IMG/VR virus record: IMGVR_UViG_646311923_000010
Reading direction: 5' to 3' (one strand)
Origin: a virus
Lineage: Duplodnaviria > Heunggongvirae > Uroviricota > Caudoviricetes
DNA: 38,756 nucleotides
The position numbers and the translations under genes are program-made. Of the stretch, positions 1,174 to 37,907 are shown piece by piece. Within the stretch, counting starts at the first letter, position 1. Every line of letters begins with the position of its first letter. The notes below the pieces were generated by a model, which was not told the origin of the DNA, ran no database searches, and saw only the letters and a list, made by a program, of their open reading frames with translations.

Positions 1174-1719
1174 TCAGCCAACAAATTTAGCAACAAATAC
1201 AGCAACCGCCGCCGTGAAAATGGTTGTGCATACTGGCACAATAATGCCACTCCAACGCCACTTCGTATTATCATCAACCTTGTCAAACCGCCGATTCATC
1301 TCATCCATAATCTTGTCAAAGCGTTTATCCATCGCTTCGGTAAGCTCACCCTTCAGGCTGTTAATGTCTGATTTGAGCTGCTCTTTCAGGTGAGCTGTAT
1401 CAGATTTAAGCTCACCTTTCAGATTCGCAATATCGCATTTAAGATCACCTTTCAGATGAGCAATGTCTGCTTTGAGCTCACCTTTCACCTCACCAACATC
1501 AGCTTTGGTTGAGAGGTTTGTAGTGCGTTCAGTAAGCGTCGCAAGGTCGTTTCTTGTTAGCGATAAATCACCTTCGAGTCGCTCAATTCGCCTTTCAAGT
1601 TTATCTGACATTCCGCCTCCACTACTGCCGCCATCGCCGCCATGATAAAGCACATCACGCTCAGAATGCGACATACTACCTGCTGAATTACCGAAAAGGT
1701 TTCTTGCTGCATTACCCAT
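1174..1719 (-). CDS. Coiled-coil protein with C-terminal transmembrane anchor and 11-aa tandem repeats (function unknown)
   Basis: ORF 1174..1728; likely ATG at 1719 preceded by AGGA 8 nt upstream; Gly-rich linker, repeated LKGELKxDxAHLK units, C-terminal hydrophobic helix IIVPVCTTIFTAAVAVFVAKFV; 2-nt gap from upstream gene. Confidence 0.6.
   Translation of the reverse strand: MGNAARNLFGNSAGSMSHSERDVLYHGGDGGSSGGGMSDKLERRIERLEGDLSLTRNDLATLTERTTNLSTKADVGEVKGELKADIAHLKGDLKCDIANLKGELKSDTAHLKEQLKSDINSLKGELTEAMDKRFDKIMDEMNRRFDKVDDNTKWRWSGIIVPVCTTIFTAAVAVFVAKFVG
1341..1505. repeat. Five tandem 33-bp repeats inside the coiled-coil gene
   Basis: Motif ctcacctttcag recurs at 1345, 1378, 1411, 1444 and 1477 (exact 33-bp period); encodes in-frame 11-aa repeats. 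Confidence 0.8.
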
Positions 1720-2212
1720 TTTCACCATCCTGCGCTTTGTCTTTCTCCAACCACTTCAGCACCGCAGACGTACGGTAAAGGCTCAGGTAACCACAATTCA
1801 GGCAATGCAGCGTGTAATAAGTTTTGCGCATATCAGGTATGCTCTTAACATCACCAAAAAAAGTATAAGATACATAATGCTTTATGTTCTCTTTAATTAA
1901 CTCACTCTGCTCCTCCAGGGGTAGATTGTTAAAATTTTCTGGTTTCTTATTTTTATCCCAACAAAGATCCATACTTTCAGGAACAGATAATCGCGACGAT
2001 CCACATGAAGGGCAGACACTGGAGACCCCCTTCTCAGACAAGAAACGGAAGAAGATTTCTGGCGTAATCTCCATCAGCCGCTCTTTATGTTTTTTGACAC
2101 GACTCATCGACTTCTTATTGATTTCATCAGCTTCTTCTTTGCATTTATCTTCTATATATTTCGATAGTAAATAGTCATATAACTCTTTTTTTGTAGGTTT
2201 TTTTATTTCCAT
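1712..2212 (-). CDS. AT-rich hypothetical protein with two CxxC pairs (putative zinc ribbon), prophage cargo
   Basis: 166-aa ORF; start codon 2 bp after the int stop (translational coupling); K/E-rich, low GC relative to neighbours; CPSC and CLNC motifs. Confidence 0.6.
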   Translation of the reverse strand: MEIKKPTKKELYDYLLSKYIEDKCKEEADEINKKSMSRVKKHKERLMEITPEIFFRFLSEKGVSSVCPSCGSSRLSVPESMDLCWDKNKKPENFNNLPLEEQSELIKENIKHYVSYTFFGDVKSIPDMRKTYYTLHCLNCGYLSLYRTSAVLKWLEKDKAQDGENG

Positions 2213-2214
2213 AG

Positions 2215-3192
2215 TTACATTCCTCCCAAGGGATTAAACCTCACCGCATCCTGCAAGTAATCCGGCGCAAGATGGGCATAAATCATCGTTGTCTGAATCT
2301 TTGCGTGCCCCAGAATTTTCTGGAGCGTCAGAATATTGCCGCCGTTCATCATGAAATGACTGGCGAAGGTGTGGCGCAGCGCATGAACAGCCTGGCCGTC
2401 AGGAACATCAGGTGCGACCGTTTTGATGACATCGCGAACCAATGAATAATCCAGCGTCGGAAACACCAGTTTCCCGCCCCGTTTTTTGATCTTTTCAAAC
2501 AGGCTTTCAGTAATAGGAACGGTACGGTTTTTGCTGTTCTTCGTTTTTGAAAAAGTGATTCGACAATGAAGAACACGGCGCTGCTCCAGTGCCGCTACCT
2601 CGCCCCATCGCGCCCCGGTCGACAGAAGGATTTCGACAGCCAGTCGTTCATCGGGATTTTCAGCCAGTGCATCCAGCAACTGAACACATTCAGACTTACT
2701 CAGATATCCCATTTCGCGCTCGTTAACCTTCATTCCTTTAAGGCCTTGAACGGGGTTATCGTTAAGAAAATGGCCGGATGAGATGAGTGCGGTAAACATC
2801 GCGCTTAACGCCCCAATCTCTCGATTTATGGTGCTGGGCTGTATCCCCTGCTCTATCCTGGACACACGTAGCTCGGTGAGCATCGTTGTATTAAGTTTAT
2901 GCACGCACGGGTCATCCATTGCTTCACTCAAGCGCAGCAATTTAAGGCGCGTGTTATGCCCTGACTTCATTAGCTGGCCGTGGTATTTCCACCACAAGTC
3001 AATAAGCACTGACAGAGGACGGCGATCAATGGAGTTTCCTTTCCACTCATTGTTATGCTGTTGCGCCAGCACCCACCGCTCATATAAAACTGCATCCGAT
3101 TTCGTTTTAAATTTTTTGCGAATGCGTTTGCCTTTACGCCCCTCCGGGCGCATGTCAAGAAGATACCCTCCCGGAATTGATTTTATGCTCAT
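2215..3192 (-). CDS. int: Tyrosine integrase, P2 Int family
   Basis: ORF 2215..3342; start set at ATG 3192 (MSIKSIPGG...) by alignment with recalled P2 Int N-terminus; C-terminal HALRHTFASHF...LGH...TTMIYAH catalytic region. Confidence 0.9.
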   Translation of the reverse strand: MSIKSIPGGYLLDMRPEGRKGKRIRKKFKTKSDAVLYERWVLAQQHNNEWKGNSIDRRPLSVLIDLWWKYHGQLMKSGHNTRLKLLRLSEAMDDPCVHKLNTTMLTELRVSRIEQGIQPSTINREIGALSAMFTALISSGHFLNDNPVQGLKGMKVNEREMGYLSKSECVQLLDALAENPDERLAVEILLSTGARWGEVAALEQRRVLHCRITFSKTKNSKNRTVPITESLFEKIKKRGGKLVFPTLDYSLVRDVIKTVAPDVPDGQAVHALRHTFASHFMMNGGNILTLQKILGHAKIQTTMIYAHLAPDYLQDAVRFNPLGGM

Positions 3193-3241
3193 TCGTGAAA
3201 CCCCAGCGTTACAAGACCACCATGCCCCCAGCGCTCCATGA

Positions 3242-3553
3242 TTAGCCGGGCTGTGTGCCAGTCTTGCGGGGTTTTTGAGAAGGCGATGTGCTTTTTGGCC
3301 CATCAGGGGAGAGAGACGGACTGATCTGCCCAGCAGCCTCATTTGTTTTTCCCGTCATAAGCCATATAGTGTATTTTTCGAAATCCTTAGAATTAATTAC
3401 GCGATCAACAACGCTTAAACCAACCTCTCTTTTACCGCTCTCATAATTCTTTATAGTTCCGAGATTTATCCCAGTAACATCTGCAAACTCAGCTTGAGTT
3501 AACCCTTCACTTTTCCGTATCTCTTTCAGTTTTTTTTCGTACCCACTTGACAT
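3242..3553 (-). CDS. C: Immunity repressor, P2 C-like HTH protein
   Basis: 103-aa ORF directly upstream of int on the same strand; helix-turn-helix segment LTQAEFADVTGINLGTIKNYESG; GGAG 6 nt upstream of ATG. Confidence 0.8.
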   Translation of the reverse strand: MSSGYEKKLKEIRKSEGLTQAEFADVTGINLGTIKNYESGKREVGLSVVDRVINSKDFEKYTIWLMTGKTNEAAGQISPSLSPDGPKSTSPSQKPRKTGTQPG

Positions 3554-3644: not shown

Positions 3645-3923
3645 ATGACAAAGCTCTTGAACACATACGAGCAAGCGGATTTTGAGCGTTTGGCGGCGTT
3701 CTACCCATACCGCGATGAGCATGGATTACCGGTACTCGAAGAAAGCCTGAAAGATTACGCGAAGCGTACCAATCAAACTGTTAATGCAGTGAAAAGGCAG
3801 GCTGACAGAGCAGCCCTTCCCATCAACCAAGAAGAAAAAAACTCAAAACGTACAGTAAATCTCTTCGCAATTTTCCTGAAAACCATCAGAAACGCAGAGA
3901 AATACGTGCAGATGACAAAATAA
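3645..3923 (+). CDS. Cox/Apl-like excision and transcription regulator (assigned by position)
   Basis: 92-aa ORF transcribed divergently from C at the position of P2 cox; little sequence similarity to P2 Cox recalled. Confidence 0.5.
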   Translation: MTKLLNTYEQADFERLAAFYPYRDEHGLPVLEESLKDYAKRTNQTVNAVKRQADRAALPINQEEKNSKRTVNLFAIFLKTIRNAEKYVQMTK

Positions 3924-3937
3924 CGAGGTGTCATTTT

Positions 3938-4276
3938 ATGCTGAAGCAACGCCGTAATTTTCGCACCGAAACGGAACGCCAAGCTAACCGTTTCGCTACC
4001 AGCGCATCACGCAGCAACATCCGCTACAGCCTGAGCGAAACACACGCAACACCGGATGGCCACGCTGTAAAACAAATCGGCGAGCATACCTGGCTGATTG
4101 AGAAAGCTGGAATCGTGGTCCACAAATGCCCACGCAATCCGTTTACCGGAAACCGCATTTTTGCATTGAGCTGCGGCGACAATCACTTCGGACAGGATTT
4201 CACATTATACGAAGCACTTCGCACGGTTGATCGTCTGCTTCGCGGGCAAAGTTTTATTAAACGGGCTGATTTATAA
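3938..4276 (+). CDS. Hypothetical early-region protein
   Basis: 112-aa ORF with GAGG upstream of ATG; same strand and tight spacing with early operon. Confidence 0.5.
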   Translation: MLKQRRNFRTETERQANRFATSASRSNIRYSLSETHATPDGHAVKQIGEHTWLIEKAGIVVHKCPRNPFTGNRIFALSCGDNHFGQDFTLYEALRTVDRLLRGQSFIKRADL

Positions 4277-4286
4277 CAGGTGCTTT

Positions 4287-4574
4287 ATGACCAAAGAGCA
4301 TGCACAAGGTGTATTTATCCGTTTTATTGATTTTCGCGGTGAACTGTTATTACGCGCATCCGCTATTGATGGAGTGGCTCCGGCGGGTAAAAACGGAGCC
4401 GACGAAGCCACTTACGTTTATCTGAACGGCACGCGACTGCTTGTGGAACTTCCGTACCAGACCGTACGAGAAATCATTAGTGAAGCTGAAAAGGCACGCC
4501 TGGCTAATGGCGATGAACCCTATATCGAAATTATTTGTATGGATTCAGAAACTGAAATTCAGAAAGCAGATTAA
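4287..4574 (+). CDS. Hypothetical early-region protein
   Basis: ORF 4227..4574; start placed at internal ATG 4287 (MTKEHAQ...) to avoid overlap with upstream gene. Confidence 0.45.
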   Translation: MTKEHAQGVFIRFIDFRGELLLRASAIDGVAPAGKNGADEATYVYLNGTRLLVELPYQTVREIISEAEKARLANGDEPYIEIICMDSETEIQKAD

Positions 4575-4585
4575 AGGGCGTTGCG

Positions 4586-4828
4586 ATGGGCAAAGAATAT
4601 AAAACTCTCATTAACAAAGCACTTGAGCGTTTTTATTTTCGCTTAAGTGCATCAGGCGCTCATGCTGAACGTGCAGCCCGTGACTCATTGACCAGGGCAA
4701 TCCGGAGTCTGTATGACGTGGCTTTTTACGCTGATGATCTGGATGCACTTAACGAACTTTCCGAGCTGATCTGTGCCGCAGAATGCGGGGAACATATTGA
4801 ACCGTATAAGCTGGGGAATATTGCATGA
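4586..4828 (+). CDS. Hypothetical early-region protein
   Basis: 80-aa ORF in the compact early operon. Confidence 0.45.
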   Translation: MGKEYKTLINKALERFYFRLSASGAHAERAARDSLTRAIRSLYDVAFYADDLDALNELSELICAAECGEHIEPYKLGNIA

Positions 4829-4938
4829 GTATATTTATCTCATGGCTTGTTCTGATTATTTCGGTGGCCTGCGCCATTGGGATTATGCGAATTATTCATT
4901 CAGTAAAAAAGATTGAACGCTTTTTCACTGGTGAATAA
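4825..4938 (+). CDS. Small hydrophobic peptide (37 aa), putative membrane protein
   Basis: ATG at 4825 overlaps the upstream stop (ATGA); translation MSIFISWLVLIISVACAIGIMRIIHSVKKIERFFTGE; not in the ORF track because it is shorter than 60 aa. Confidence 0.35.
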   Translation: MSIFISWLVLIISVACAIGIMRIIHSVKKIERFFTGE

Positions 4939-5031
4939 CGATACAAATAAAGCATCAAATTAAATAAGAAAACGTGAAAACCATCCGTATTAACGGAGGT
5001 ATTCGCACACGCAAATAACGGAGATACAAAA

Positions 5032-5442
5032 ATGCACGCAAAAGAAGAAGGTATCATCAGAGCACTGAAAGAAATTTCAAAGACAGAAAACGAAGTAGCG
5101 AAAAAAGCCGTGGCCAATGCTCACATGGACGTCGCAACCCACACAATGATAGTCGCAAAAGTCACGGCAGAAGCTGCCAAAATCATCGAAGAACAGGGTG
5201 TGGAACTTGCGCTTCTCAAAACTAAACCAGTCACCGGACTGGATTTATCTGACACCGGACGCCTTATTTACACTATTGGCTCGGAGCCACAGCGATACAC
5301 CATTATCGCCGGATTACAGAACAAATACCTGATCACTCCTCACCCCATAAGGGAATCAGCGCTTCTGACAAATCTCCGCCTGATAGAACGCTCTCAAGCT
5401 GTATTCATTGATGACGCGCAACGTGCCGTATTTAACGCATAG
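5032..5442 (+). CDS. Hypothetical early-region protein
   Basis: 136-aa ORF; GGAG-type RBS upstream of ATG. Confidence 0.5.
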   Translation: MHAKEEGIIRALKEISKTENEVAKKAVANAHMDVATHTMIVAKVTAEAAKIIEEQGVELALLKTKPVTGLDLSDTGRLIYTIGSEPQRYTIIAGLQNKYLITPHPIRESALLTNLRLIERSQAVFIDDAQRAVFNA

Positions 5443-5465
5443 GGTTACTGGACAAAAGGGGCGCA

Positions 5466-5669
5466 ATGGCAATTAAGCATTTTTCCGTCGTTCGCTTTAC
5501 CTCCAGAGGGCGCGAATACGAGGTCGACGAACGCCTGATTACCACTATCGACAAACATCGTTCGGAAAAGGATGCACACCACATCTACCTCACTGACGGC
5601 ACTTATTTCTGCGCCACCAACGTGGCGCGGGTGAATCTTATCCGACAAGTACAGGAGCCACGTAGATGA
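5466..5669 (+). CDS. Hypothetical early-region protein
   Basis: 67-aa ORF; overlaps next gene start by 4 nt. Confidence 0.4.
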   Translation: MAIKHFSVVRFTSRGREYEVDERLITTIDKHRSEKDAHHIYLTDGTYFCATNVARVNLIRQVQEPRR

Positions 5670-5932
5670 CCATTCTGGACTACATCGCTACTCATCCGGG
5701 GTGTAGCGGCGGAGAGATCGCCGCAGCACTGAATACTCCAACCACAGCCATTAATGCTGAGTTACGCCAACTTTGGCGCGGCGGCTTAGTCATCAGAACA
5801 AACCGCAGCACAGGTGGTCGCGCTCGCAAAACAGGAGGCCAGGCTTCTTACCACGTAAACCCGATGCCGTTCGGGTGTAGCAATCCACTTACTCACATGT
5901 TTAACCAGCTACTGAAGGAAGCCAGAGCATGA
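5666..5932 (+). CDS. Hypothetical protein, possible winged-helix DNA-binding protein
   Basis: 88-aa ORF; start overlaps upstream stop; Gly/Arg-rich basic segment. Confidence 0.45.
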   Translation: MTILDYIATHPGCSGGEIAAALNTPTTAINAELRQLWRGGLVIRTNRSTGGRARKTGGQASYHVNPMPFGCSNPLTHMFNQLLKEARA

Positions 5933-5997
5933 GCACCATCAACCACCAGGAATTACATCCATCATCATTTCCGAGATGCCAACAGGCTCTTCACAGT

Positions 5998-6465
5998 TCA
6001 GAAACTGCACAACCAGCAAATTAACCTTTCGGAGTAACGCAAATGTTCGCTGGCAGACAACCCAACAGATGCACTCGCTTTGTTTTTTGCGGGCCTGACA
6101 ATCGCTTTCATGTATGCGCTGTTCGTTTCTTCCAGATGCAGAATGCGCTCAGTGAGGCGTTCAGTGGTCATAAAATCCCTTTGCGTAATCAGACGCAGAT
6201 AGCTCTGTTTCTGCCAGCACGCCAGTTCGGCGACGAATTCACACTTGCTGCAAAACCAGGAAAAACCAAAAAACACCAGTCCGCAAAGACTCATCAGGGC
6301 AGGGAACTCAATCAGAAGAAAAGACAACACCGCAGCAATCAAGGCTCCAGAGCGCAGCACAAAAGCGGCCTTGTTGTTGAGTATGAAAACCATCTCTTCC
6401 AGCCAGTAGCTGTACCACAGATGGAAAAAAATCTTCTTGTCTGCTTGCTCCATAGCAACAGGCAT
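5998..6465 (-). CDS. Membrane protein (two predicted TM helices) encoded antisense to the early operon
   Basis: ORF 5998..6471; ATG at 6465 with GGAGG 6 nt upstream; host-like codon usage; hydrophobic stretches LRSGALIAAVLSFLLIEF and LMSLCGLVFFGFSWF. Confidence 0.55.
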   Translation of the reverse strand: MPVAMEQADKKIFFHLWYSYWLEEMVFILNNKAAFVLRSGALIAAVLSFLLIEFPALMSLCGLVFFGFSWFCSKCEFVAELACWQKQSYLRLITQRDFMTTERLTERILHLEETNSAYMKAIVRPAKNKASASVGLSASEHLRYSERLICWLCSF

Positions 6466-6599
6466 AAACAACCTCCATTGTTAATAAACGCCGCTATCCT
6501 TCGGCGCATTCCATTTTTGCGCCGCGATTATACATACTTCAGCACGCAACACAAAAACCGCTTGCCAGCGCTCGTTGAGTCGGGTTACATTTCCGCTGC

Positions 6600-6815
6600 A
6601 CCTCATAAAACGGGTGCCGGGATTCTCAACCCGCTGACTACACACGCGCACAACCGCGCCAGCGGTTTTTTTGTGCGTACTGTATTGCCACGTCTTTTTC
6701 GCGTCAGAATTATGGCGGGGCGTACGGGGCCGACTTCGGTCGGGCCGGGATCGTGTGTAGCCGGTGTTGAGAACCCCGTACGTCTCGCCACCCCAAGATT
6801 CTCAACTCTGGATGG
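6600..6815 (+). other. Structured intergenic region with long-range inverted repeats; candidate small RNA or regulatory element
   Basis: TTCTCAAC...CTACACACG (6622-6645) repeated inverted as CGTGTGTAG...GTTGAGAA (6750-6771) and again directly at 6797-6811; CGTACGGGG/CCCCGTACG stem; CCGAC-UUCG-GUCGG hairpin. Confidence 0.3.
6652..6672 (+). terminator. Orphan rho-independent terminator (plus strand) within the structured intergenic region
   Basis: AACCGC-GCCA-GCGGTT stem-loop followed by a 7-T run; no plus-strand ORF ends immediately upstream. Confidence 0.5.
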
Positions 6816-6851
6816 TGAGTTTTCAAAACTTACTATACACGAGGCCACGTC

Positions 6852-7082
6852 ATGGCAAACCGCATGCAACAGCGCGCCCGCGCTGAGCGTATTCACATCC
6901 GCAGCGAAATCAACCGCAGACTTTTTCGCGCAACACGCGTCGCGCAAATCATGCACATCAATATGTTGCATGAGCGCAGCCACGCACTATCAAACATTTA
7001 TTCCGCCTCTGTTTTCAGCTATCTGGCGGATGATCTGCACGAGCTTCAACAGCTCATCCAGCAGCAAAACAAACTCCATTAA
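6852..7082 (+). CDS. Hypothetical early-region protein
   Basis: 76-aa ORF with GAGG upstream of ATG. Confidence 0.4.
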   Translation: MANRMQQRARAERIHIRSEINRRLFRATRVAQIMHINMLHERSHALSNIYSASVFSYLADDLHELQQLIQQQNKLH

Positions 7083-7154
7083 TTCCTGTTCCGGGCCTTT
7101 CCTGCACCTTGCGGCGGGAGGCCTTCGCACATCTGTAACAAGAGGATTGCCGCA

Positions 7155-7520
7155 ATGATTCTCGCCAACGACTTTCTTGAATACCTGCTCAACACAGAGC
7201 GTGATCTTGCCGCTCGCGTGCGTGATCGTTATGACATGTACCTGAAATCCCTGCCTGTACCGCAGCTCGCTGACGGAAAGATTGTTATTGATGGTCGCTA
7301 CATGATTGACAGCCACGAGGGAAATTACAGGCTTTACCGCATTGAAGGTGGCACCCCGTCCGTTATTGGCATTTACCAGCGCCCATCCTCTGCAATCGTC
7401 GATGTGATTGCAGACAGCATCCGCATCACACATCGCCATACCGACACAGAAGACACCGTGCTGGAAATTCAGCGGCTGGCTACAGTCTGCCGCGACACCC
7501 TGAATGGCATGACGAAGTAA
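7155..7520 (+). CDS. Hypothetical early-region protein directly upstream of gene A
   Basis: 121-aa ORF; AGAGGA RBS upstream; 6-nt gap to A start. Confidence 0.5.
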   Translation: MILANDFLEYLLNTERDLAARVRDRYDMYLKSLPVPQLADGKIVIDGRYMIDSHEGNYRLYRIEGGTPSVIGIYQRPSSAIVDVIADSIRITHRHTDTEDTVLEIQRLATVCRDTLNGMTK

Positions 7521-7526
7521 ATCACT

Positions 7527-10349
7527 ATGACGGCAGAGTACATCAGGGACTGGCAACAACCGCGCCACGCAGTGGGGCGTGAAGGAACGGGGATCCCCGC
7601 TCCTAAATCCGCGCTTTCCTCCTGGCTGGATGCCTACCGGGTAGAGAACGAGCGCCGCCAGGAAATGGCTGATGCGGCGTTCTCCGCCACGCCGCTGGGC
7701 AACCTGATTAATAAAAACCTGGACGCACAGGAAAAACAGGACAAAACCATCACACTGGCAGGAGACGCCAGAAAACAGGCACGCGGCGCGGTGGATGAAG
7801 CCATGGCCTCGCTGCGCCTGCTGCCGTCCTATCTGCGCGATCCGCTTATTCGCCACCTCTCCTTCCTGCGCAAAAAACAGGAAGCCGATCGCCGGAAAGG
7901 CAAAAAGAGCTGGCAGGCGGAACGCTATGCACGCGGAACCCTGCGCAAAATATTCGAACGTCTGGACCGCACCGACCACCGCTGGCTGACACCGGGTTAT
8001 CGCTCCCTTGCCGGACGCGAACGCCTGGATGATTTGCTTTACCTGCCGCAGCTCAACAAACACCAGATACAGACGCTGGCCACCATGACGGCGGCGATGT
8101 TCAGCAGCACTTTCGAAAAACTCTGCGATGGCTTTGGCGCGACCGATGGCGAGCTGACCATGGATGTAACGCTGAAGGCGTATCAGATGCTGGCCCGCAT
8201 GGCGTTACACCTGCACGCCATGCCTCCACATTATGACGCACTGACAACAGACAAAGACCGGAGGAACGAACCGGACACGGAGCTGCTGCCGGGTGCAATC
8301 CTTCGCCTGACCTGTGCGGAATGGTGGAAACGCAAACTGTGGCTGTTACGTTGCGAGTGGCGGGAAGAACAACTCCGCGCCGCCTGTCTGGTTTCCAGAA
8401 AAACATCGCCCTATCTGAGTCAGGACGCATTAAGCGAGTTTCGCGCGCAGCGCGAGAAAACACGCGATTTCCTGAAAAGTTTCATGCTGGAAAACGAAGA
8501 CGGGTTCACGATTGATCTCGAGACAGTGTATTACGCGGGAGTAAGTAACCCGGTTCACCGTAAGGCAGAAATGATGGCCACCATGAAGGGGCTGGAACTT
8601 CTGGCCGAAGCCCGTGGCGACAGAGCGGTGTTTCTGACTGTCACCTGCCCGTCAAAATACCACGCCACAACAGAGAACGGTAATCCGAATCCCAAATGGA
8701 ACGGGGCCACCATGCGCGACTCCAGCGATTACCTGGTTAACACGTTTTTTGCGGCAGTCCGCAAAAAACTGAACCGCGACGGTCTGCGCTGGTATGGCAT
8801 CCGCACGGTGGAGCCTCACCATGACGGCACCGTGCACTGGCATATGATGGTCTTTGCTCATCCGGAAGAAATCGACACCATTGTGTCCCACACCCGCGAT
8901 ATTGCCATTCAGGAAGATCGTCACGAGCTGGGTGATGATATTACCCCACGCTTTAAGGCAGAGTACGTCGACGGTTCGAAAGGTACGCCGACCAGCTACA
9001 TCGCCACCTACATCGGAAAGAACCTGGACAGCCGCGCCGTGGGTGGCATTGACCCGAAAACAAGCAAGCCACGCGTTGATCACGAAACCGGAAAATCAAT
9101 GGCCGAGAGCGTGGAACGCGCCATCGGCTGGGCGCGCCTTCACCGCGTCCGCCAGTTCCAGTTCTTTGGTATCCCCTCCCGTCAGGTATGGCGTGAACTC
9201 CGCCGCCTTGCCAGTCAGATGGCCCGCAACCCGGAAGGTCCACAACGTCTGGAAAATGACGCAATGGATGCGGTACTCGCTGCCGCTGATGCCGGGTGTT
9301 TTGCCACCTACATTGAGAAACAGGGTGGCGTACTTGTTCCACGCAAGGATTACCTGATTCGCACCGCCTACGACCTCGCAGAAGAGCTGAACGATTACGG
9401 CGAGCAAAGCGTACAGATTTACGGGATCTGGTCGCCACAAATCGGGGAATCTTCCCGCGTGTGCACGCACCCGGATAACTGGAAGCTGGTAAGACGTAAA
9501 CCGGAAGCGGAAGACAGCGCCCGCGAAAATGGTTTTGACCTTCAGGGCGGCCCTGCCGCCCCTTGGACTCGTGGCAATAACTGTCCCCGTGTACAGGAAA
9601 CGAACAACAACGGGACAGAACAGCCGGAAGAACGGCCAGCACCGTGGCCGCAGCTCCCTGATGGCGTTGAAGTGAACGAATGGATGCGCTCACTGAAACG
9701 GCACGAACGCCGGGCGCTGATGCGTTCGCTTCGTGACAAACAGGCAAAAAACAGCAGTGATGAAATGCAGAGCTGGACACAGAGCCGCAAACAGCAGCGG
9801 CCTTTGCCTGATAACCACGAATTACTCGCTAAAGAATGGCGGGAATCTGCCGAATCTCTCGGCCTGCATATCGGTGAACAGCAGATGCAGCACCTGTTAC
9901 GGGGCGGCAGCCTGTACGTTGACGGCAGCATCATTGCACCGCAGGGATTTGAAATTGTACGCAAACCAGATACCCGCCCGGACAGCCGAATCACGCAGCT
10001 CTGGCAGCGCCTGAGCCGTAATCACGGCGTAAGCAGCACAGAGATCCGCCATAACCCGGTCGCCAGCTATCTGGAACAACTGGGGGCATCAGACCCCGAA
10101 GCCGCCGCACGTCTGGCATCCACACTTCAGCAGGACCAGAACACCATGAAAACCCCCGTTACCGTGCTTTCTGACATGCTGCGCGCCATCCGTGACGCAG
10201 AGCACGCACAGAGAATCAGTGAAACCACTGAACGCGCCCACCGCAAAGCAGACCTGCTGCGGGGTAGCCTGACCAGTGGAAACAAAAAACAGACAGAAAC
10301 GGGACTCACAAATCCCGTAAATGAGCAAAAAACGCGCCGCGATATATGA
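7527..10349 (+). CDS. A: Rolling-circle replication initiator endonuclease, P2 gpA family
   Basis: 940-aa ORF; HUH-type motif VHWHMMVFA and tyrosine pair YIATYIGKNLD characteristic of gpA-type nicking proteins; canonical position in P2 early operon. Confidence 0.85.
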   Translation: MTAEYIRDWQQPRHAVGREGTGIPAPKSALSSWLDAYRVENERRQEMADAAFSATPLGNLINKNLDAQEKQDKTITLAGDARKQARGAVDEAMASLRLLPSYLRDPLIRHLSFLRKKQEADRRKGKKSWQAERYARGTLRKIFERLDRTDHRWLTPGYRSLAGRERLDDLLYLPQLNKHQIQTLATMTAAMFSSTFEKLCDGFGATDGELTMDVTLKAYQMLARMALHLHAMPPHYDALTTDKDRRNEPDTELLPGAILRLTCAEWWKRKLWLLRCEWREEQLRAACLVSRKTSPYLSQDALSEFRAQREKTRDFLKSFMLENEDGFTIDLETVYYAGVSNPVHRKAEMMATMKGLELLAEARGDRAVFLTVTCPSKYHATTENGNPNPKWNGATMRDSSDYLVNTFFAAVRKKLNRDGLRWYGIRTVEPHHDGTVHWHMMVFAHPEEIDTIVSHTRDIAIQEDRHELGDDITPRFKAEYVDGSKGTPTSYIATYIGKNLDSRAVGGIDPKTSKPRVDHETGKSMAESVERAIGWARLHRVRQFQFFGIPSRQVWRELRRLASQMARNPEGPQRLENDAMDAVLAAADAGCFATYIEKQGGVLVPRKDYLIRTAYDLAEELNDYGEQSVQIYGIWSPQIGESSRVCTHPDNWKLVRRKPEAEDSARENGFDLQGGPAAPWTRGNNCPRVQETNNNGTEQPEERPAPWPQLPDGVEVNEWMRSLKRHERRALMRSLRDKQAKNSSDEMQSWTQSRKQQRPLPDNHELLAKEWRESAESLGLHIGEQQMQHLLRGGSLYVDGSIIAPQGFEIVRKPDTRPDSRITQLWQRLSRNHGVSSTEIRHNPVASYLEQLGASDPEAAARLASTLQQDQNTMKTPVTVLSDMLRAIRDAEHAQRISETTERAHRKADLLRGSLTSGNKKQTETGLTNPVNEQKTRRDI

Positions 10350-10425: not shown

Positions 10426-11385
10426 ATGAAAATTTGTATCGACGACGGCTCCACCAACATCAAGCTGGCATGGACTGAGAACGGCGAACGCCGCAACGCC
10501 ATCAGCCCGAACAGCTTCAAGTCGGAATGGTCTGCGCCGTTCGGTGGTACGCAGCCCGCGAACTACATGCTTGATGGCGTGCGCTATGGTTTTGATCCGG
10601 TCAGCGATCGCTTTGTCCAGACGACCGACACGCAATACCAGTACAGCGATGTGAATGTCATTGCCATTCATCACGCGCTGGTCAAATCAGGCATCACACC
10701 ACAGGAAGTGGATGTGGTTGTCACCCTGCCACTGAGCGAGTATTTCGATACAAACGCACAGCCGGACATGGCCAACATCAACCGCAAAAAAGCGAACGTC
10801 ATGCGCCCGGTGGAGTACCAGAACGGCGAAGCATTCACTATCCGTAACGTACGGGTTATGCCTGAATCCATTCCGGCAGGCTTTAAGGCACTGGCTGACA
10901 TGAGTCCGTTTGAATCCCTACTGATTGTGGATTTGGGCGGAACCACGCTGGATGTGGCAAAGGTTCAGGGGCAACTGGCAGGTATCAGCCAGGTGTTTTG
11001 CGATCCACACGTAGGCGTTTCTCTGATGGCCGATGCCGTACTGTCGGTGATGGCCACTAACGGTATGCGCACCAGTCACCACATCGCCAATACCATTATC
11101 GAACATCGCCATGATGAAGCCTGGCTGCGCCAGCACATCCACAATGACGCGCATTACGCCAGCCTGATGGCGGTTATTCGTGAAAAGGAAGAAACACTGA
11201 AACAACGCGTGATCCGCGCGCTGGCGGTTTTTTCGGGTTACGGGCGGGTGATGGTTGTCGGTGGCGGGGCGGAGATTGTGGCACCCGCTATCCGCGAAGC
11301 CTGCGGAGTTAATGCGACTTTCATCGCGGACGGGGTGCCACAGTTTGCTCTGGTTAATGGGCTGTACGCAATGGACAAGGAGTAA
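10426..11385 (+). CDS. parM: ParM/StbA-like actin-fold partition ATPase
   Basis: 319-aa ORF; N-terminus MKICIDDGSTNIKLAW and motifs YSDVNVIAIHHAL, VMPESIPAG, LIVDLGGTTLD, VMVVGGGAE align with recalled plasmid R1 ParM. Confidence 0.8.
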   Translation: MKICIDDGSTNIKLAWTENGERRNAISPNSFKSEWSAPFGGTQPANYMLDGVRYGFDPVSDRFVQTTDTQYQYSDVNVIAIHHALVKSGITPQEVDVVVTLPLSEYFDTNAQPDMANINRKKANVMRPVEYQNGEAFTIRNVRVMPESIPAGFKALADMSPFESLLIVDLGGTTLDVAKVQGQLAGISQVFCDPHVGVSLMADAVLSVMATNGMRTSHHIANTIIEHRHDEAWLRQHIHNDAHYASLMAVIREKEETLKQRVIRALAVFSGYGRVMVVGGGAEIVAPAIREACGVNATFIADGVPQFALVNGLYAMDKE

Positions 11386-11389
11386 ACCA

Positions 11390-11701
11390 ATGACGACACC
11401 AACCAGACGGATAAGTTTCTATCTGAAGCCCGCCGCCGTCAAGAACGAAGGCGAAGCATGCGCATGGCTGGACAGCCTTACACCAGAAGCCCGCAAAAGC
11501 GGCCAACGCGTGGCTTTTCTGGCCGGGCTGGCACTTCTGAAAATGAATCCGGCAGAGGCTTACCGACTGGCTGCATGGGCTGACGATGAGACGTTATCAG
11601 TGACACAAACCAAGACAGAACGCCCCGAGTCACAGCCAGTACCAACCGCACAGATAACCAGTCAGATGGCCGGAAATATCAGGGCGTTATTTCCTGAATA
11701 A
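11390..11701 (+). CDS. parR: ParR-like centromere-binding adaptor
   Basis: ORF 11255..11701; ATG at 11390 four nt after parM-like stop; RISFYLKP...LDSLTPEARKSGQRVAFLAGLAL resembles recalled R1 ParR N-terminal region. Confidence 0.6.
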   Translation: MTTPTRRISFYLKPAAVKNEGEACAWLDSLTPEARKSGQRVAFLAGLALLKMNPAEAYRLAAWADDETLSVTQTKTERPESQPVPTAQITSQMAGNIRALFPE

Positions 11702-28450: not shown

Positions 28451-28504
28451 TGGCCGTTTCCGGCCTGCATGGCATGATTTGCGCTTTTGGACGGGAGATT
28501 CAGT

Positions 28505-29104
28505 GTGCTGATTGGTTATGTAAGGGTATCAACAAATGACCAGAATACAGACCTGCAACGAAACGCTCTTGTTTGTGCAGGATGTGAACAAATATTTGAA
28601 GATAAATTAAGCGGGACAAAGACAGACCGACCGGGATTAAAACGCGCTTTAAAGCGGCTTCAAAAAGGTGACACGCTGGTTGTCTGGAAACTGGATCGCC
28701 TCGGGCGAAGCATGAAACATCTGATTTCTCTCGTCGGGGAACTACGGGAGCGAGGGATTAATTTTCGCAGTCTGACCGACAGCATAGATACATCTTCTCC
28801 AATGGGGCGTTTTTTCTTCCACGTTATGGGTGCCCTGGCTGAAATGGAACGTGAATTAATTGTTGAACGTACACTGGCCGGACTGGCGGCAGCGCGCGCA
28901 CGGGGGCGCACAGGCGGACGTCGCCCGAAGCTGACAAAAGAACAGCATGAGCAAATAGCTAGGCTGATCAAAAACGGTCATGACAGGAAACAACTGGCGA
29001 TCATTTACGACATCGGCATATCGACAATTTATCGTTATCACCCTGTGGGCGATATACAGGCTGAAGAAACAACCAGGCAGACTCAGGAAAATGAAAACCG
29101 CTAA
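28505..29104 (+). CDS. Serine recombinase DNA invertase (Gin/Pin/Cin/Hin family)
   Basis: ORF 28487..29104; GTG at 28505 gives MLIGYVRVSTNDQNTDLQRNAL, the classic invertase N-terminus with catalytic Ser; C-terminal HTH. Confidence 0.9.
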   Translation: MLIGYVRVSTNDQNTDLQRNALVCAGCEQIFEDKLSGTKTDRPGLKRALKRLQKGDTLVVWKLDRLGRSMKHLISLVGELRERGINFRSLTDSIDTSSPMGRFFFHVMGALAEMERELIVERTLAGLAAARARGRTGGRRPKLTKEQHEQIARLIKNGHDRKQLAIIYDIGISTIYRYHPVGDIQAEETTRQTQENENR

Positions 29105-36323: not shown

Positions 36324-37907
36324 ATGGCAAGTAAAGCTAACCTTGTTAATTTGGATGCGATGATTTCAAGAGAGGATTTCTCTGCTCAATCCGATAATGA
36401 TTTATCTTTCGAATCTATACAAAATATAGCTATGAGAGATATCGAAATGTTGTCTGGCCTACTCAGAAAACCAGATTTTCAGAGAGAAACAAATCACTGG
36501 ACTCCAGAGCAAGTAGTTTCATTACTAAAGAGTTTTGTCACAGGTGATTTAATACCATCCGTGATTTTATGGAAGAGTTCTTTTCTGTTTGTTATAGACG
36601 GTGGTCATAGACTTAGTGTTTTAAGAGCATGGAAAGAAAATGACTATGGTGATGGCACTATATCGCAAAAATTCTTTGGAAATAGTATTTCCGGAGAGCA
36701 AAGAAAGATCGCACAAAAAACAAGAGAATTGGTTGACTCCACAGTTGGTAAATGGTCTGAGATAGAAAGAAAAATGCAGGATTCTAATAATGACCATGAT
36801 GAGAGTAGAAGGCTTACAAATATTTACGTAAGGGCTTTGCAAGTCCAGTGGGTTAAAGGTGATTCCGATAAGGCAGAAACGTCTTTTTTCAATATAAATA
36901 AAAAAGGTACTCCTTTAGATGAGGTTGAGGAAACTTTACTTAGGCATAGGAAGAAACCTATATCTATCGCTGCGAGAGCAATAATACGTGCAGGAAAAGG
37001 ACATAGATACTGGTCCTCTTTCCCTGAGGATAAGACTAAAAAGATAGAAGAGCTTTCCTCAAATATAAACTCCTCTCTTTTCGATCCAGACGTTAAATCT
37101 CAAATTAAAACACTTGATCTACCTCTGGGTGGCTCACGCGGTGTGAGGTTAGCTCTTGATATCTTAATAGATCTTATGTCTATTTCCGTGTCCCAAAACG
37201 AAAATTATCAAAAAGAATTGCTTAATCAAATCGAAGATTCAGATGGAAGCGAAACTGTTGTTGTTCTGGAAAAAACCGCAAAATTACTAAATTGGATTAC
37301 TGGAAATGACAAGGGCAGCTTAGGATTACATCCGGCCGTGTATTTTTATAGTGCATCAGGCAGACATGTGAATCCTATGTTTTTAGGGACGACTCTGTTT
37401 ATAGCGAAAAAATTAAAATTTAATGATAAGAACTTCTTCAAAAAATTCACAAGTATTAGGTTTAATTTAGAGAAAACTCTAATAAACAATAAGTCTATGC
37501 TAGCATCGTTAGTGAACAGAGCAGGACATAAGAAAAGAACTGAGTATTACTCTAATTTATTTGAGTCAATGATTGATTTCCTTCTTGAGGTAAAAAAGAA
37601 AGACAAAAGCATGAGTGATTTCAGCCTTACAGAAAGTGAAATACTCCAGCTTGCTCACTTTGAAGGTAATATCCTATCTGGGACAAGTATCAGCAATGCA
37701 ACTAAAATTAGTGAGGAAGCGAAGAATGCTGTATTCATTGATACTGCATTAGCTTCAGCAATTACATGTCCTATCTGCCAGGGATATTTAGATCCTTCAA
37801 AATCTGTCTCATATGATCACATCAAAAGAGTTGCAGATGGTGGTAAAGGTTTGGCAAAAAATACTCAGTTAACTCACCCGTATTGCAATATGTCTGTCAA
37901 AAATTAG
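36324..37907 (+). CDS. DUF262 (ParB-like, DGxHR motif) + C-terminal HNH nuclease protein; GmrSD/BrxU-like candidate defence nuclease
   Basis: 527-aa AT-rich ORF; N-terminal PDFQRETNHWTPEQV...FVIDGGHRLSVL matches the DUF262 signature; C-terminal CPICQGY...YDHIKRVADGGKG...NTQLTHPYCN is HNH/His-Me-finger-like; flanked by AT-rich non-coding DNA. Confidence 0.7.
   Translation: MASKANLVNLDAMISREDFSAQSDNDLSFESIQNIAMRDIEMLSGLLRKPDFQRETNHWTPEQVVSLLKSFVTGDLIPSVILWKSSFLFVIDGGHRLSVLRAWKENDYGDGTISQKFFGNSISGEQRKIAQKTRELVDSTVGKWSEIERKMQDSNNDHDESRRLTNIYVRALQVQWVKGDSDKAETSFFNINKKGTPLDEVEETLLRHRKKPISIAARAIIRAGKGHRYWSSFPEDKTKKIEELSSNINSSLFDPDVKSQIKTLDLPLGGSRGVRLALDILIDLMSISVSQNENYQKELLNQIEDSDGSETVVVLEKTAKLLNWITGNDKGSLGLHPAVYFYSASGRHVNPMFLGTTLFIAKKLKFNDKNFFKKFTSIRFNLEKTLINNKSMLASLVNRAGHKKRTEYYSNLFESMIDFLLEVKKKDKSMSDFSLTESEILQLAHFEGNILSGTSISNATKISEEAKNAVFIDTALASAITCPICQGYLDPSKSVSYDHIKRVADGGKGLAKNTQLTHPYCNMSVKN

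Follow-up and report, generated by a model that had tools for sequence, protein, structure and literature searches.

Why should a temperate phage carry a gene that points against its lytic genes, and what could such a gene do for the lysogen? The question is raised by an ORF of 155 aa in the window, i.e., the whole stretch of 38,756 nucleotides of viral DNA that was analysed. The window represents a P2/186-type prophage of the P88 group (Xuanwuvirus, Peduoviridae). Its positions 5933..6560 are 100% identical in E. coli O145 strains, e.g., RM9872, and the prophage adjoins btuC. At stake is the idea that orientation alone lets a prophage shut down a dangerous accessory gene while it grows lytically itself. 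The ORF and its surroundings are arranged as follows.

2215..3342, minus strand: integrase, in the left part of the layout
3242..3553, minus strand: C-type repressor, in the left part of the layout
3645..5932, plus strand: early genes, reading rightward, left of the 155-aa gene
5666..5932, plus strand: MarR-like winged-helix gene, the last early gene before the 155-aa gene
5950..6548, minus strand: variable cassette of 599 bp (155-aa gene, 5' leader and -10 element), delimited by homology breaks, with no terminator of its own
5998..6465, minus strand: CDS of 155 aa, predicted inner-membrane protein (ORF, PGAP, dN/dS, phrog_6315, homologues)
6598..6672, plus strand: isrK RNA (Rfam, 61.8 bits)
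6708..6795, plus strand: C4 antisense RNA (Rfam, 78 bits)
6852..7082, plus strand: PF25738 'derepression' protein, followed by a 121-aa ORF
7527..10349, plus strand: replication gene A, with ParM-type partition genes and then late genes further right

An earlier sequence-only reading had placed the ORF on the strand opposite to all surrounding early genes and convergent with them. The antisense orientation stands, and the ORF is indeed convergent with the early genes on its left (3645..5932); on the right, however, it diverges from plus-strand features, namely isrK, the C4 RNA, gene A and the gene of the derepression protein.

The two RNAs on the right form a tandem with a promoter-like site before each, and the PF25738 'derepression' protein comes next. 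This block resembles an antirepressor control unit of the P1 immI or Gifsy-1 IsrK kind, here placed in a P2-type prophage. Replication gene A is on the same strand, downstream of the strong isrK terminator. A functional tie of the 155-aa gene to isrK and C4 was considered and rejected, because family members in other phages have neither RNA nearby.

Since a plus-strand ORF of 371 aa (6043..7158) overlaps the 155-aa gene, both frames were compared with three diverged E. coli copies (dS of at least 0.23). The minus frame shows a dN/dS of 0.13-0.20 at a dS of 0.23-0.41, and third codon positions hold most of the differences, whereas the overlapping plus ORF reaches 1.3-2.1. On this comparative evidence, 5998..6465 on the minus strand is a true protein-coding gene under purifying selection. 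The plus ORF was discarded as spurious because of its dN/dS and because it crosses the two Rfam RNAs. Homologues of the minus-strand protein with 20-37% identity have the same length, hydrophobic hairpin, architecture and set of invariant polar residues. The host-like codon usage ascribed to the ORF does not distinguish it: its GC3 of 57.7% (overall GC 47.9%) falls within the 46-63% of the neighbouring phage genes.

The gene starts and the hydrophobic part of its product is encoded at the following positions.

6472..6476, minus strand: Shine-Dalgarno GGAGG, 6 nt before the ATG, read from the sequence and kept in the E. coli variants
6465..6463, minus strand: ATG of the 155-aa ORF
6307..6369, minus strand: codons of predicted TM helix 1 (residues ~33-53; Kyte-Doolittle, 19-residue windows up to 2.25), within AlphaFold2 helix 2-50
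6238..6300, minus strand: codons of predicted TM helix 2 (residues ~56-76; hydropathy), within AlphaFold2 helix 55-94

The ORF with a GGAGG ribosome binding site was thus recovered as read before. A TTG start at 6471, which appears in the ORF-tool listing, is unlikely since it leaves zero spacing to the GGAGG. In the PGAP annotation of E. coli O145 RM9872, the identical CDS of 468 nt appears as hypothetical protein WP_001143720.1; in the literature searched by accession, no mention of WP_001143720 was found.

Two TM helices had been predicted as well, and this is in good agreement with our hydropathy profile, where a hydrophobic stretch (residues ~33-76) is broken at E53-F54-P55, and with the structure model. 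The AlphaFold2 model, built from an alignment of 36 sequences (mean pLDDT 84.5, pTM 0.74), exhibits one long hairpin of helices 2-50 and 55-94 and, after it, three short helices. The conserved columns of the family alignment lie outside the TM hairpin: the N-terminal helix has WYSYWLE and NRR, the segment after TM helix 2 has A..A..Q...Y..L, and the C-terminal helices have EE.DS and NPARN.A. The N-R-R motif is found just N-terminal of TM helix 1, consistent with a cytoplasmic N-terminal side, and the basic conserved segment KAEAAxQQAKRY follows TM helix 2, consistent with a cytoplasmic C-terminal side. As basic residues border both cytoplasm-facing ends of the hairpin, we infer from the positive-inside rule an N-in/C-in topology with both ends in the cytoplasm.

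By profile match (E 1.8e-27, 97 bits, residues 9-154 against positions 4-148 of 152), the protein belongs to phrog_6315, a PHROG family annotated as function unknown. Since no function is annotated for this family, the assignment gives the protein a name but no explanation. When 1.84 billion representatives were scanned in full with HMMER, 11 matches resulted. Profile searches extended the family to about 60 clusters of 148-163 aa, a few truncated fragments left out, all from Enterobacterales and all annotated as 'hypothetical'. The genera are Escherichia, Salmonella, Citrobacter, Enterobacter, Serratia, Yersinia, Pectobacterium, Brenneria, Sodalis, Pantoea, Cedecea and Phytobacter. A third homologue search, with a profile of the most divergent members, returned the same compact family and no bridge to SLATT. 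The sequence-only reading would have fallen if the ORF were not conserved in related prophages; it is present there, and in unrelated temperate phages as well. As far as the contigs indicate, the family is confined to temperate phages of Enterobacterales, apart from one member in an apparently non-temperate contig, and is almost always antisense.

Comparison with related phages delimits the cassette. Against phage vB_EcoM-569R5, homology ends at 5949 and restarts at 6549; against P88, it ends at 5956 and restarts at 6549. Thus, as expected for a moron, the slot is differently filled among related phages: 569R5 carries a single gene of 99 aa and P88 three genes, all on the plus strand. Judged by these breaks, the 155-aa gene occupies a swappable slot. 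In the E. coli JNEC-KY204 prophage, the left junction coincides with the stop codon, next to a DUF4406 gene. The same slot holds, in the same orientation, a second E. coli cassette type that encodes a protein 37% identical to that of the window type. The slot itself does not dictate orientation, because the P88 and 569R5 cassettes in it are co-directional with the early genes. The cassette was found in only 11 of 5426 complete E. coli genomes, and most close relatives of the prophage are without it.

A wider view of orientation was obtained from 39 IMG/VR viral contigs collected with the family profile. Gene A is present in 31 of the loci, each time on the opposite strand; an integrase is present in 32, each time on the strand of the family gene and 0.6 to 5.9 kb away from it. 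The gene thus nearly always opposes the lytic genes and shares the direction of repressor and integrase, while its insertion site varies. In Pectobacterium, it lies between the early promoter Pe and cox, such that the predicted Pe transcribes antisense through the cassette; this homologue has a terminator of its own with a 14-bp stem (locus L019, 5491-5524). In 186-like Enterobacter prophages, the gene is flanked by cII and fil; other early genes flank it in Serratia and in Yersinia phage vB_YenM_42.18, and in two Mu-like phages it lies antisense between late genes. The member on contig L012, which stems from a different, apparently non-temperate phage, runs in the direction of its neighbours. 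That the gene was repeatedly inserted in antisense speaks for an accessory gene with independent expression and for selection on its orientation.

An independently expressed gene should bring its own signals. The following sites were read from the sequence.

6549..6554, minus strand: predicted -35 TTGTGT, invariant in 8 of 8 aligned loci, with a 16-nt spacer to the -10
6527..6532, minus strand: predicted -10, TATAAT in the window-type cassettes and TAGAAT in the second E. coli type
6562..6591, plus strand: isrK promoter-like site TTGCCA-18-TACATT, back-to-back with the cassette promoter

The predicted -35 lies in the conserved flank and the predicted -10 inside the cassette. In the second E. 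coli cassette type, the -35 is retained and TAGAAT occurs at equal distance, followed by an unrelated leader. A consensus promoter scan did not call TTGTGT-16-TATAAT, having missed the weak -35, and the promoter prediction therefore rests on conservation. The 5' leader folds no better than shuffled sequences (z = -0.5). The own terminator that a moron may be expected to have is missing in the window: no terminator-like site was seen in 5933-5997 downstream of the gene, and the nearest minus-strand candidate is weak and located inside the neighbouring gene (5824..5807). By contrast with this gene, isrK has a strong intrinsic terminator at its end (6652..6672, plus strand). Because the isrK unit has this terminator and a promoter-like site of its own, the slot in this phage probably marks the junction of two rightward transcription units. 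The description of the ORF as embedded in the early operon therefore holds insofar as it follows the early genes in antisense, but the slot directly precedes the separate promoter/terminator unit of isrK and C4. A paper on the Salmonella prophage transcriptome contains nothing on the 155-aa protein family.

Outside E. coli, the gene rarely comes alone. In nearly all loci other than the E. coli types, a small ORF of 27-48 aa with acidic ends and the core D.FH[VI][LP][HR]KPAPxP is found directly upstream. Its last acidic codons constitute the Shine-Dalgarno sequence of the 2TM gene, which suggests coupled translation of the two. The proline-rich core recalls EF-P-dependent stalling motifs, which is a speculative parallel. 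The small ORF is absent from both P88-type cassettes of E. coli, the window type and the second type. Its positions in the other loci are given below.

L003, 3868-3987
L005 and L006, about 5899-5994
L008, 5896-5994
L013, 4827-4973
L019, 4882-4995
L036-L059, upstream of 8001

Upstream of the small ORF, we observe a conserved nested inverted repeat, GCCGGG-N9-CCCGGC overlapping CCATG...CATGG, then GTTGTGGTA. The repeat occurs in P2-like as well as Mu-like contexts and matches no Rfam family; an operator and an RNA element are both conceivable. It was located at these positions.

L003, 3759-3790
L005, about 5686-5715
L008, about 5790-5820
L013, about 4718-4748
L019, about 4798-4830

In search of a function, the window protein was compared with known exclusion, abortive infection, defence and toxin families, without a significant match in Pfam, NCBIfam or PADLOC. 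There is no PADLOC 2.0 or NCBIfam match at E <= 1, and Pfam yields only sub-threshold matches to unrelated families (best E 0.014). A sequence search of the PDB gave nothing, and fold searches gave only generic helical hairpins, which are uninformative. Pfam matches to ATP-synt_I (15 of 36 members, best E 2e-4) and to HemY_N were ascribed to similarity of hydrophobic hairpins and rejected as homology.

Weak likenesses appear among the relatives. Four of ten diverse members show co-linear, sub-threshold PADLOC matches, to the CBASS '2TM effector' (E 2.8e-4, 0.027 and 0.031) or to RTasSLATT (0.0034). The best of these (PDLC00712, E 2.8e-4) belongs to P0043, a distant member; the window protein gave none. 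Reversed sequences gave such matches in none of ten cases, so the resemblance is not purely compositional. Among 36 members searched against Pfam, there is one match to SLATT_4 (E 0.11) and one to SLATT_fungal (E 0.15), and SLATT proteins head the fold matches in the viral database BFVD, all at E >= 0.16. The SLATT gathering score is reached by none, and the window protein has no SLATT match at all.

In architecture, the likeness is closer. The protein has the SLATT-type layout of two TM helices flanked by predicted cytoplasmic helices in about 150-200 aa, and the family resembles the 2TM effectors of SLATT, CBASS and DRT systems in size (150-190 aa), in the two-helix hairpin and in the flanking cytoplasmic helices. 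Like the family, SLATT and CBASS effectors are found in mobile elements and conflict systems. They normally adjoin a sensor or a signal-making enzyme, whereas the family mostly has the small acidic peptide upstream instead of an adjacent partner enzyme. No SMODS, SLOG, TIR, reverse-transcriptase or cyclase neighbour was detected by Pfam in loci L005-L013 and L017-L020. An assignment to the CBASS 2TM effectors (PDLC00712, PDLC00696) does not hold, as there is neither a significant match nor an adjacent CD-NTase. We therefore treat an action in the manner of SLATT-type membrane effectors as a lead suggested by profiles and architecture, with membership in SLATT not established.

Another group of possible counterparts is formed by HK97 gp15, T4 Imm, P22 SieA and SieB, and lambda RexB, small inner-membrane exclusion proteins that are classical morons. 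The window gene shares with them the small predicted inner-membrane product, the accessory status, the location within a block of phage genes and a patchy occurrence among relatives; the promoter of its own that such a moron has is a prediction here. It differs in that there is no sequence or profile similarity, that the window protein consists mostly of a conserved predicted cytoplasmic helical domain, and that a terminator is missing. The position fits known cargo as well. According to a 2026 survey (PMC13586616), the interval from int to gpA holds 8% of the recognised defence systems in P2-like prophages. The window gene shares this interval, a minor hotspot beside that of gpA-gpQ with tin and old, and differs from such cargo in being single, small and not recognised by PADLOC. 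For known anti-phage systems, the transmembrane components are described as presumed suicide effectors (PMC9122126).

What, then, is the gene for? We regard it as an autonomous accessory gene, a moron, for a predicted inner-membrane protein whose most likely role would be to protect the lysogen against other phages, an explanation to which we give an even chance. The moron interpretation of the sequence-only reading is supported by comparative evidence, i.e., the variable slot, the conserved promoter-like site, purifying selection and the antisense placement throughout the family. The gene is a previously uncharacterised member of this familiar element type, and a role in phage exclusion or abortive infection is plausible.

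Transcription would run leftward from a sigma-70-type promoter belonging to the gene (-35 at 6554..6549, -10 at 6532..6527) as long as the early promoter is repressed, i.e., in the lysogen. The shared direction with repressor and integrase in 32 of 32 loci lends indirect support to such expression. The protein would then enter the inner membrane with both ends in the cytoplasm, and the N-terminal helix and a C-terminal helical part of about 80 residues would carry the conserved residues. Their location outside the membrane hairpin suggests that the soluble part senses or binds something and that the hairpin acts on the membrane. The lysogen might be protected by a block of entry at the membrane, or by a collapse of the membrane upon infection, as in the 2TM effectors of SLATT and CBASS systems. 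Once the prophage's own lytic switch is thrown, convergent early transcription across the cassette would silence the gene via collision and antisense RNA; this would explain the nearly constant antisense orientation. The window version would act without the small acidic peptide, which in most relatives is probably a partner or an inhibitor of the 2TM protein.

If the protein excludes other phages or aborts their infection, the defence genes carried by P2-type and Mu-type prophages would gain a small, easily tested family, at sites in the early region that have come to the notice of hotspot surveys only recently. The nearly perfect antisense placement at several insertion points in two phage types also makes the family a clean test case for switch-off by orientation. 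A bolder version, which we put forward as possible but unlikely, is an unrecognised defence or addiction system of one or two genes, consisting of a SLATT-like 2TM effector with a cytoplasmic sensing domain and the FHxLHKPxP peptide as inhibitor or trigger. The antisense placement would serve as its safety catch: the phage's own lytic transcription would silence the effector, such that only infections by other phages could trigger it.

Among the alternatives, a toxin-antitoxin or addiction module survives best, although we consider it doubtful. The 2TM protein would be a membrane toxin restrained by the acidic peptide, or by other means in the window, that stabilises the prophage or kills cells that lose it. 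Most members outside E. coli are indeed bicistronic, with the conserved acidic ORF of 27-48 aa apparently coupled in translation, and the conserved cytoplasmic segments of the 2TM protein (NRR, KAEAAxQQAKRY, NPARNRA) are basic and would complement an acidic partner. Yet both E. coli types are under purifying selection without the peptide. Type I toxins are very small hydrophobic peptides, usually under 60 aa, and controlled by antisense RNA; the 155 aa of the window protein, with their large conserved predicted soluble part, far exceed such membrane toxins, no toxin-antitoxin family matches, and no Rfam antitoxin RNA overlaps the gene. Since many toxin-antitoxin pairs also function in abortive infection, this alternative overlaps with protection of the lysogen as the preferred explanation.

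It appears improbable that the antisense promoter is what counts and the ORF is secondary, with leftward transcription damping leaky expression of gene A and steadying lysogeny. The geometry would allow it: every P2/186-type locus has the cassette between early promoter and gene A, facing the early promoter, and because the window cassette lacks a terminator, its transcript should extend antisense into the winged-helix gene (5666..5932). However, such a function does not account for a protein so strongly constrained, with invariant residues down to 20-30% identity. The gene is moreover antisense in the late regions of Mu-like phages, the Pectobacterium homologue ends in a terminator of its own, and most relatives of the phage manage without the cassette.

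We likewise see little chance for a protein that is expressed after induction and serves the phage's own lytic cycle, e.g., in replication anchoring, lysis timing or host takeover. The location among early genes, together with weak matches of single members to Pfam holin families (E 0.04-0.1), is what speaks in its favour. But the holin matches are isolated and non-significant, the gene is antisense to all lytic transcription units in 31 of 31 loci, no link to a late or early promoter is visible, and its absence from most close relatives marks it as accessory. Finally, a chance ORF, with the real gene on the plus strand, might be read from the overlapping 371-aa ORF and from the plus-strand genes that public records of related phages annotate across homologous regions, but it is already refuted by the comparison of frames, as the plus frame has a dN/dS of 1.3-2.1 and runs through isrK and C4, and the minus frame is conserved as a protein in distant phages.

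The public records deserve a remark of their own, since those of related phages probably annotate the wrong strand at the family gene, and they draw ORFs across two known RNAs. 'Hypothetical proteins' are annotated over the isrK/C4 region in vB_EcoM-569R5 (URC09556.1, L001 3838-4455) and in P88 (gp13, L002 4914-5102); together with the window ORF 6043-7158, these are probably spurious. In Yersinia phage vB_YenM_42.18 (NC_070913.1), gp08 (YP_010664162.1, 221 aa) is annotated on the minus strand at L003 3803-4468, and an intact family member of 156 aa lies antisense to it at 3989-4459 on the plus strand. The record has probably called the wrong strand at gp08.

Several other loci of the window were noted in passing. 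Directly after gene A, a ParM and a partition/stability protein (10426-11701, plus strand) form a plasmid-like segregation module in a P2-type prophage. A protein of 527 aa with a GmrSD_N (DUF262) domain is encoded just past the gpD tail gene at the far prophage end (36324-37907, plus strand) and is probably type IV restriction-like defence cargo at an accessory site known from P2. The interval from btuC to the integrase (1174-2212, minus strand) contains genes for a DUF1640/CCDC90-like coiled-coil protein and for a hypothetical protein of 166 aa; this corresponds to the int-att position, a minor cargo site of P2-like prophages according to the 2026 survey. A resolvase-type invertase (28487-29104, plus strand) adjoins tail-fibre-region ORFs in opposite orientation and is, for this reason, probably a host-range switch.
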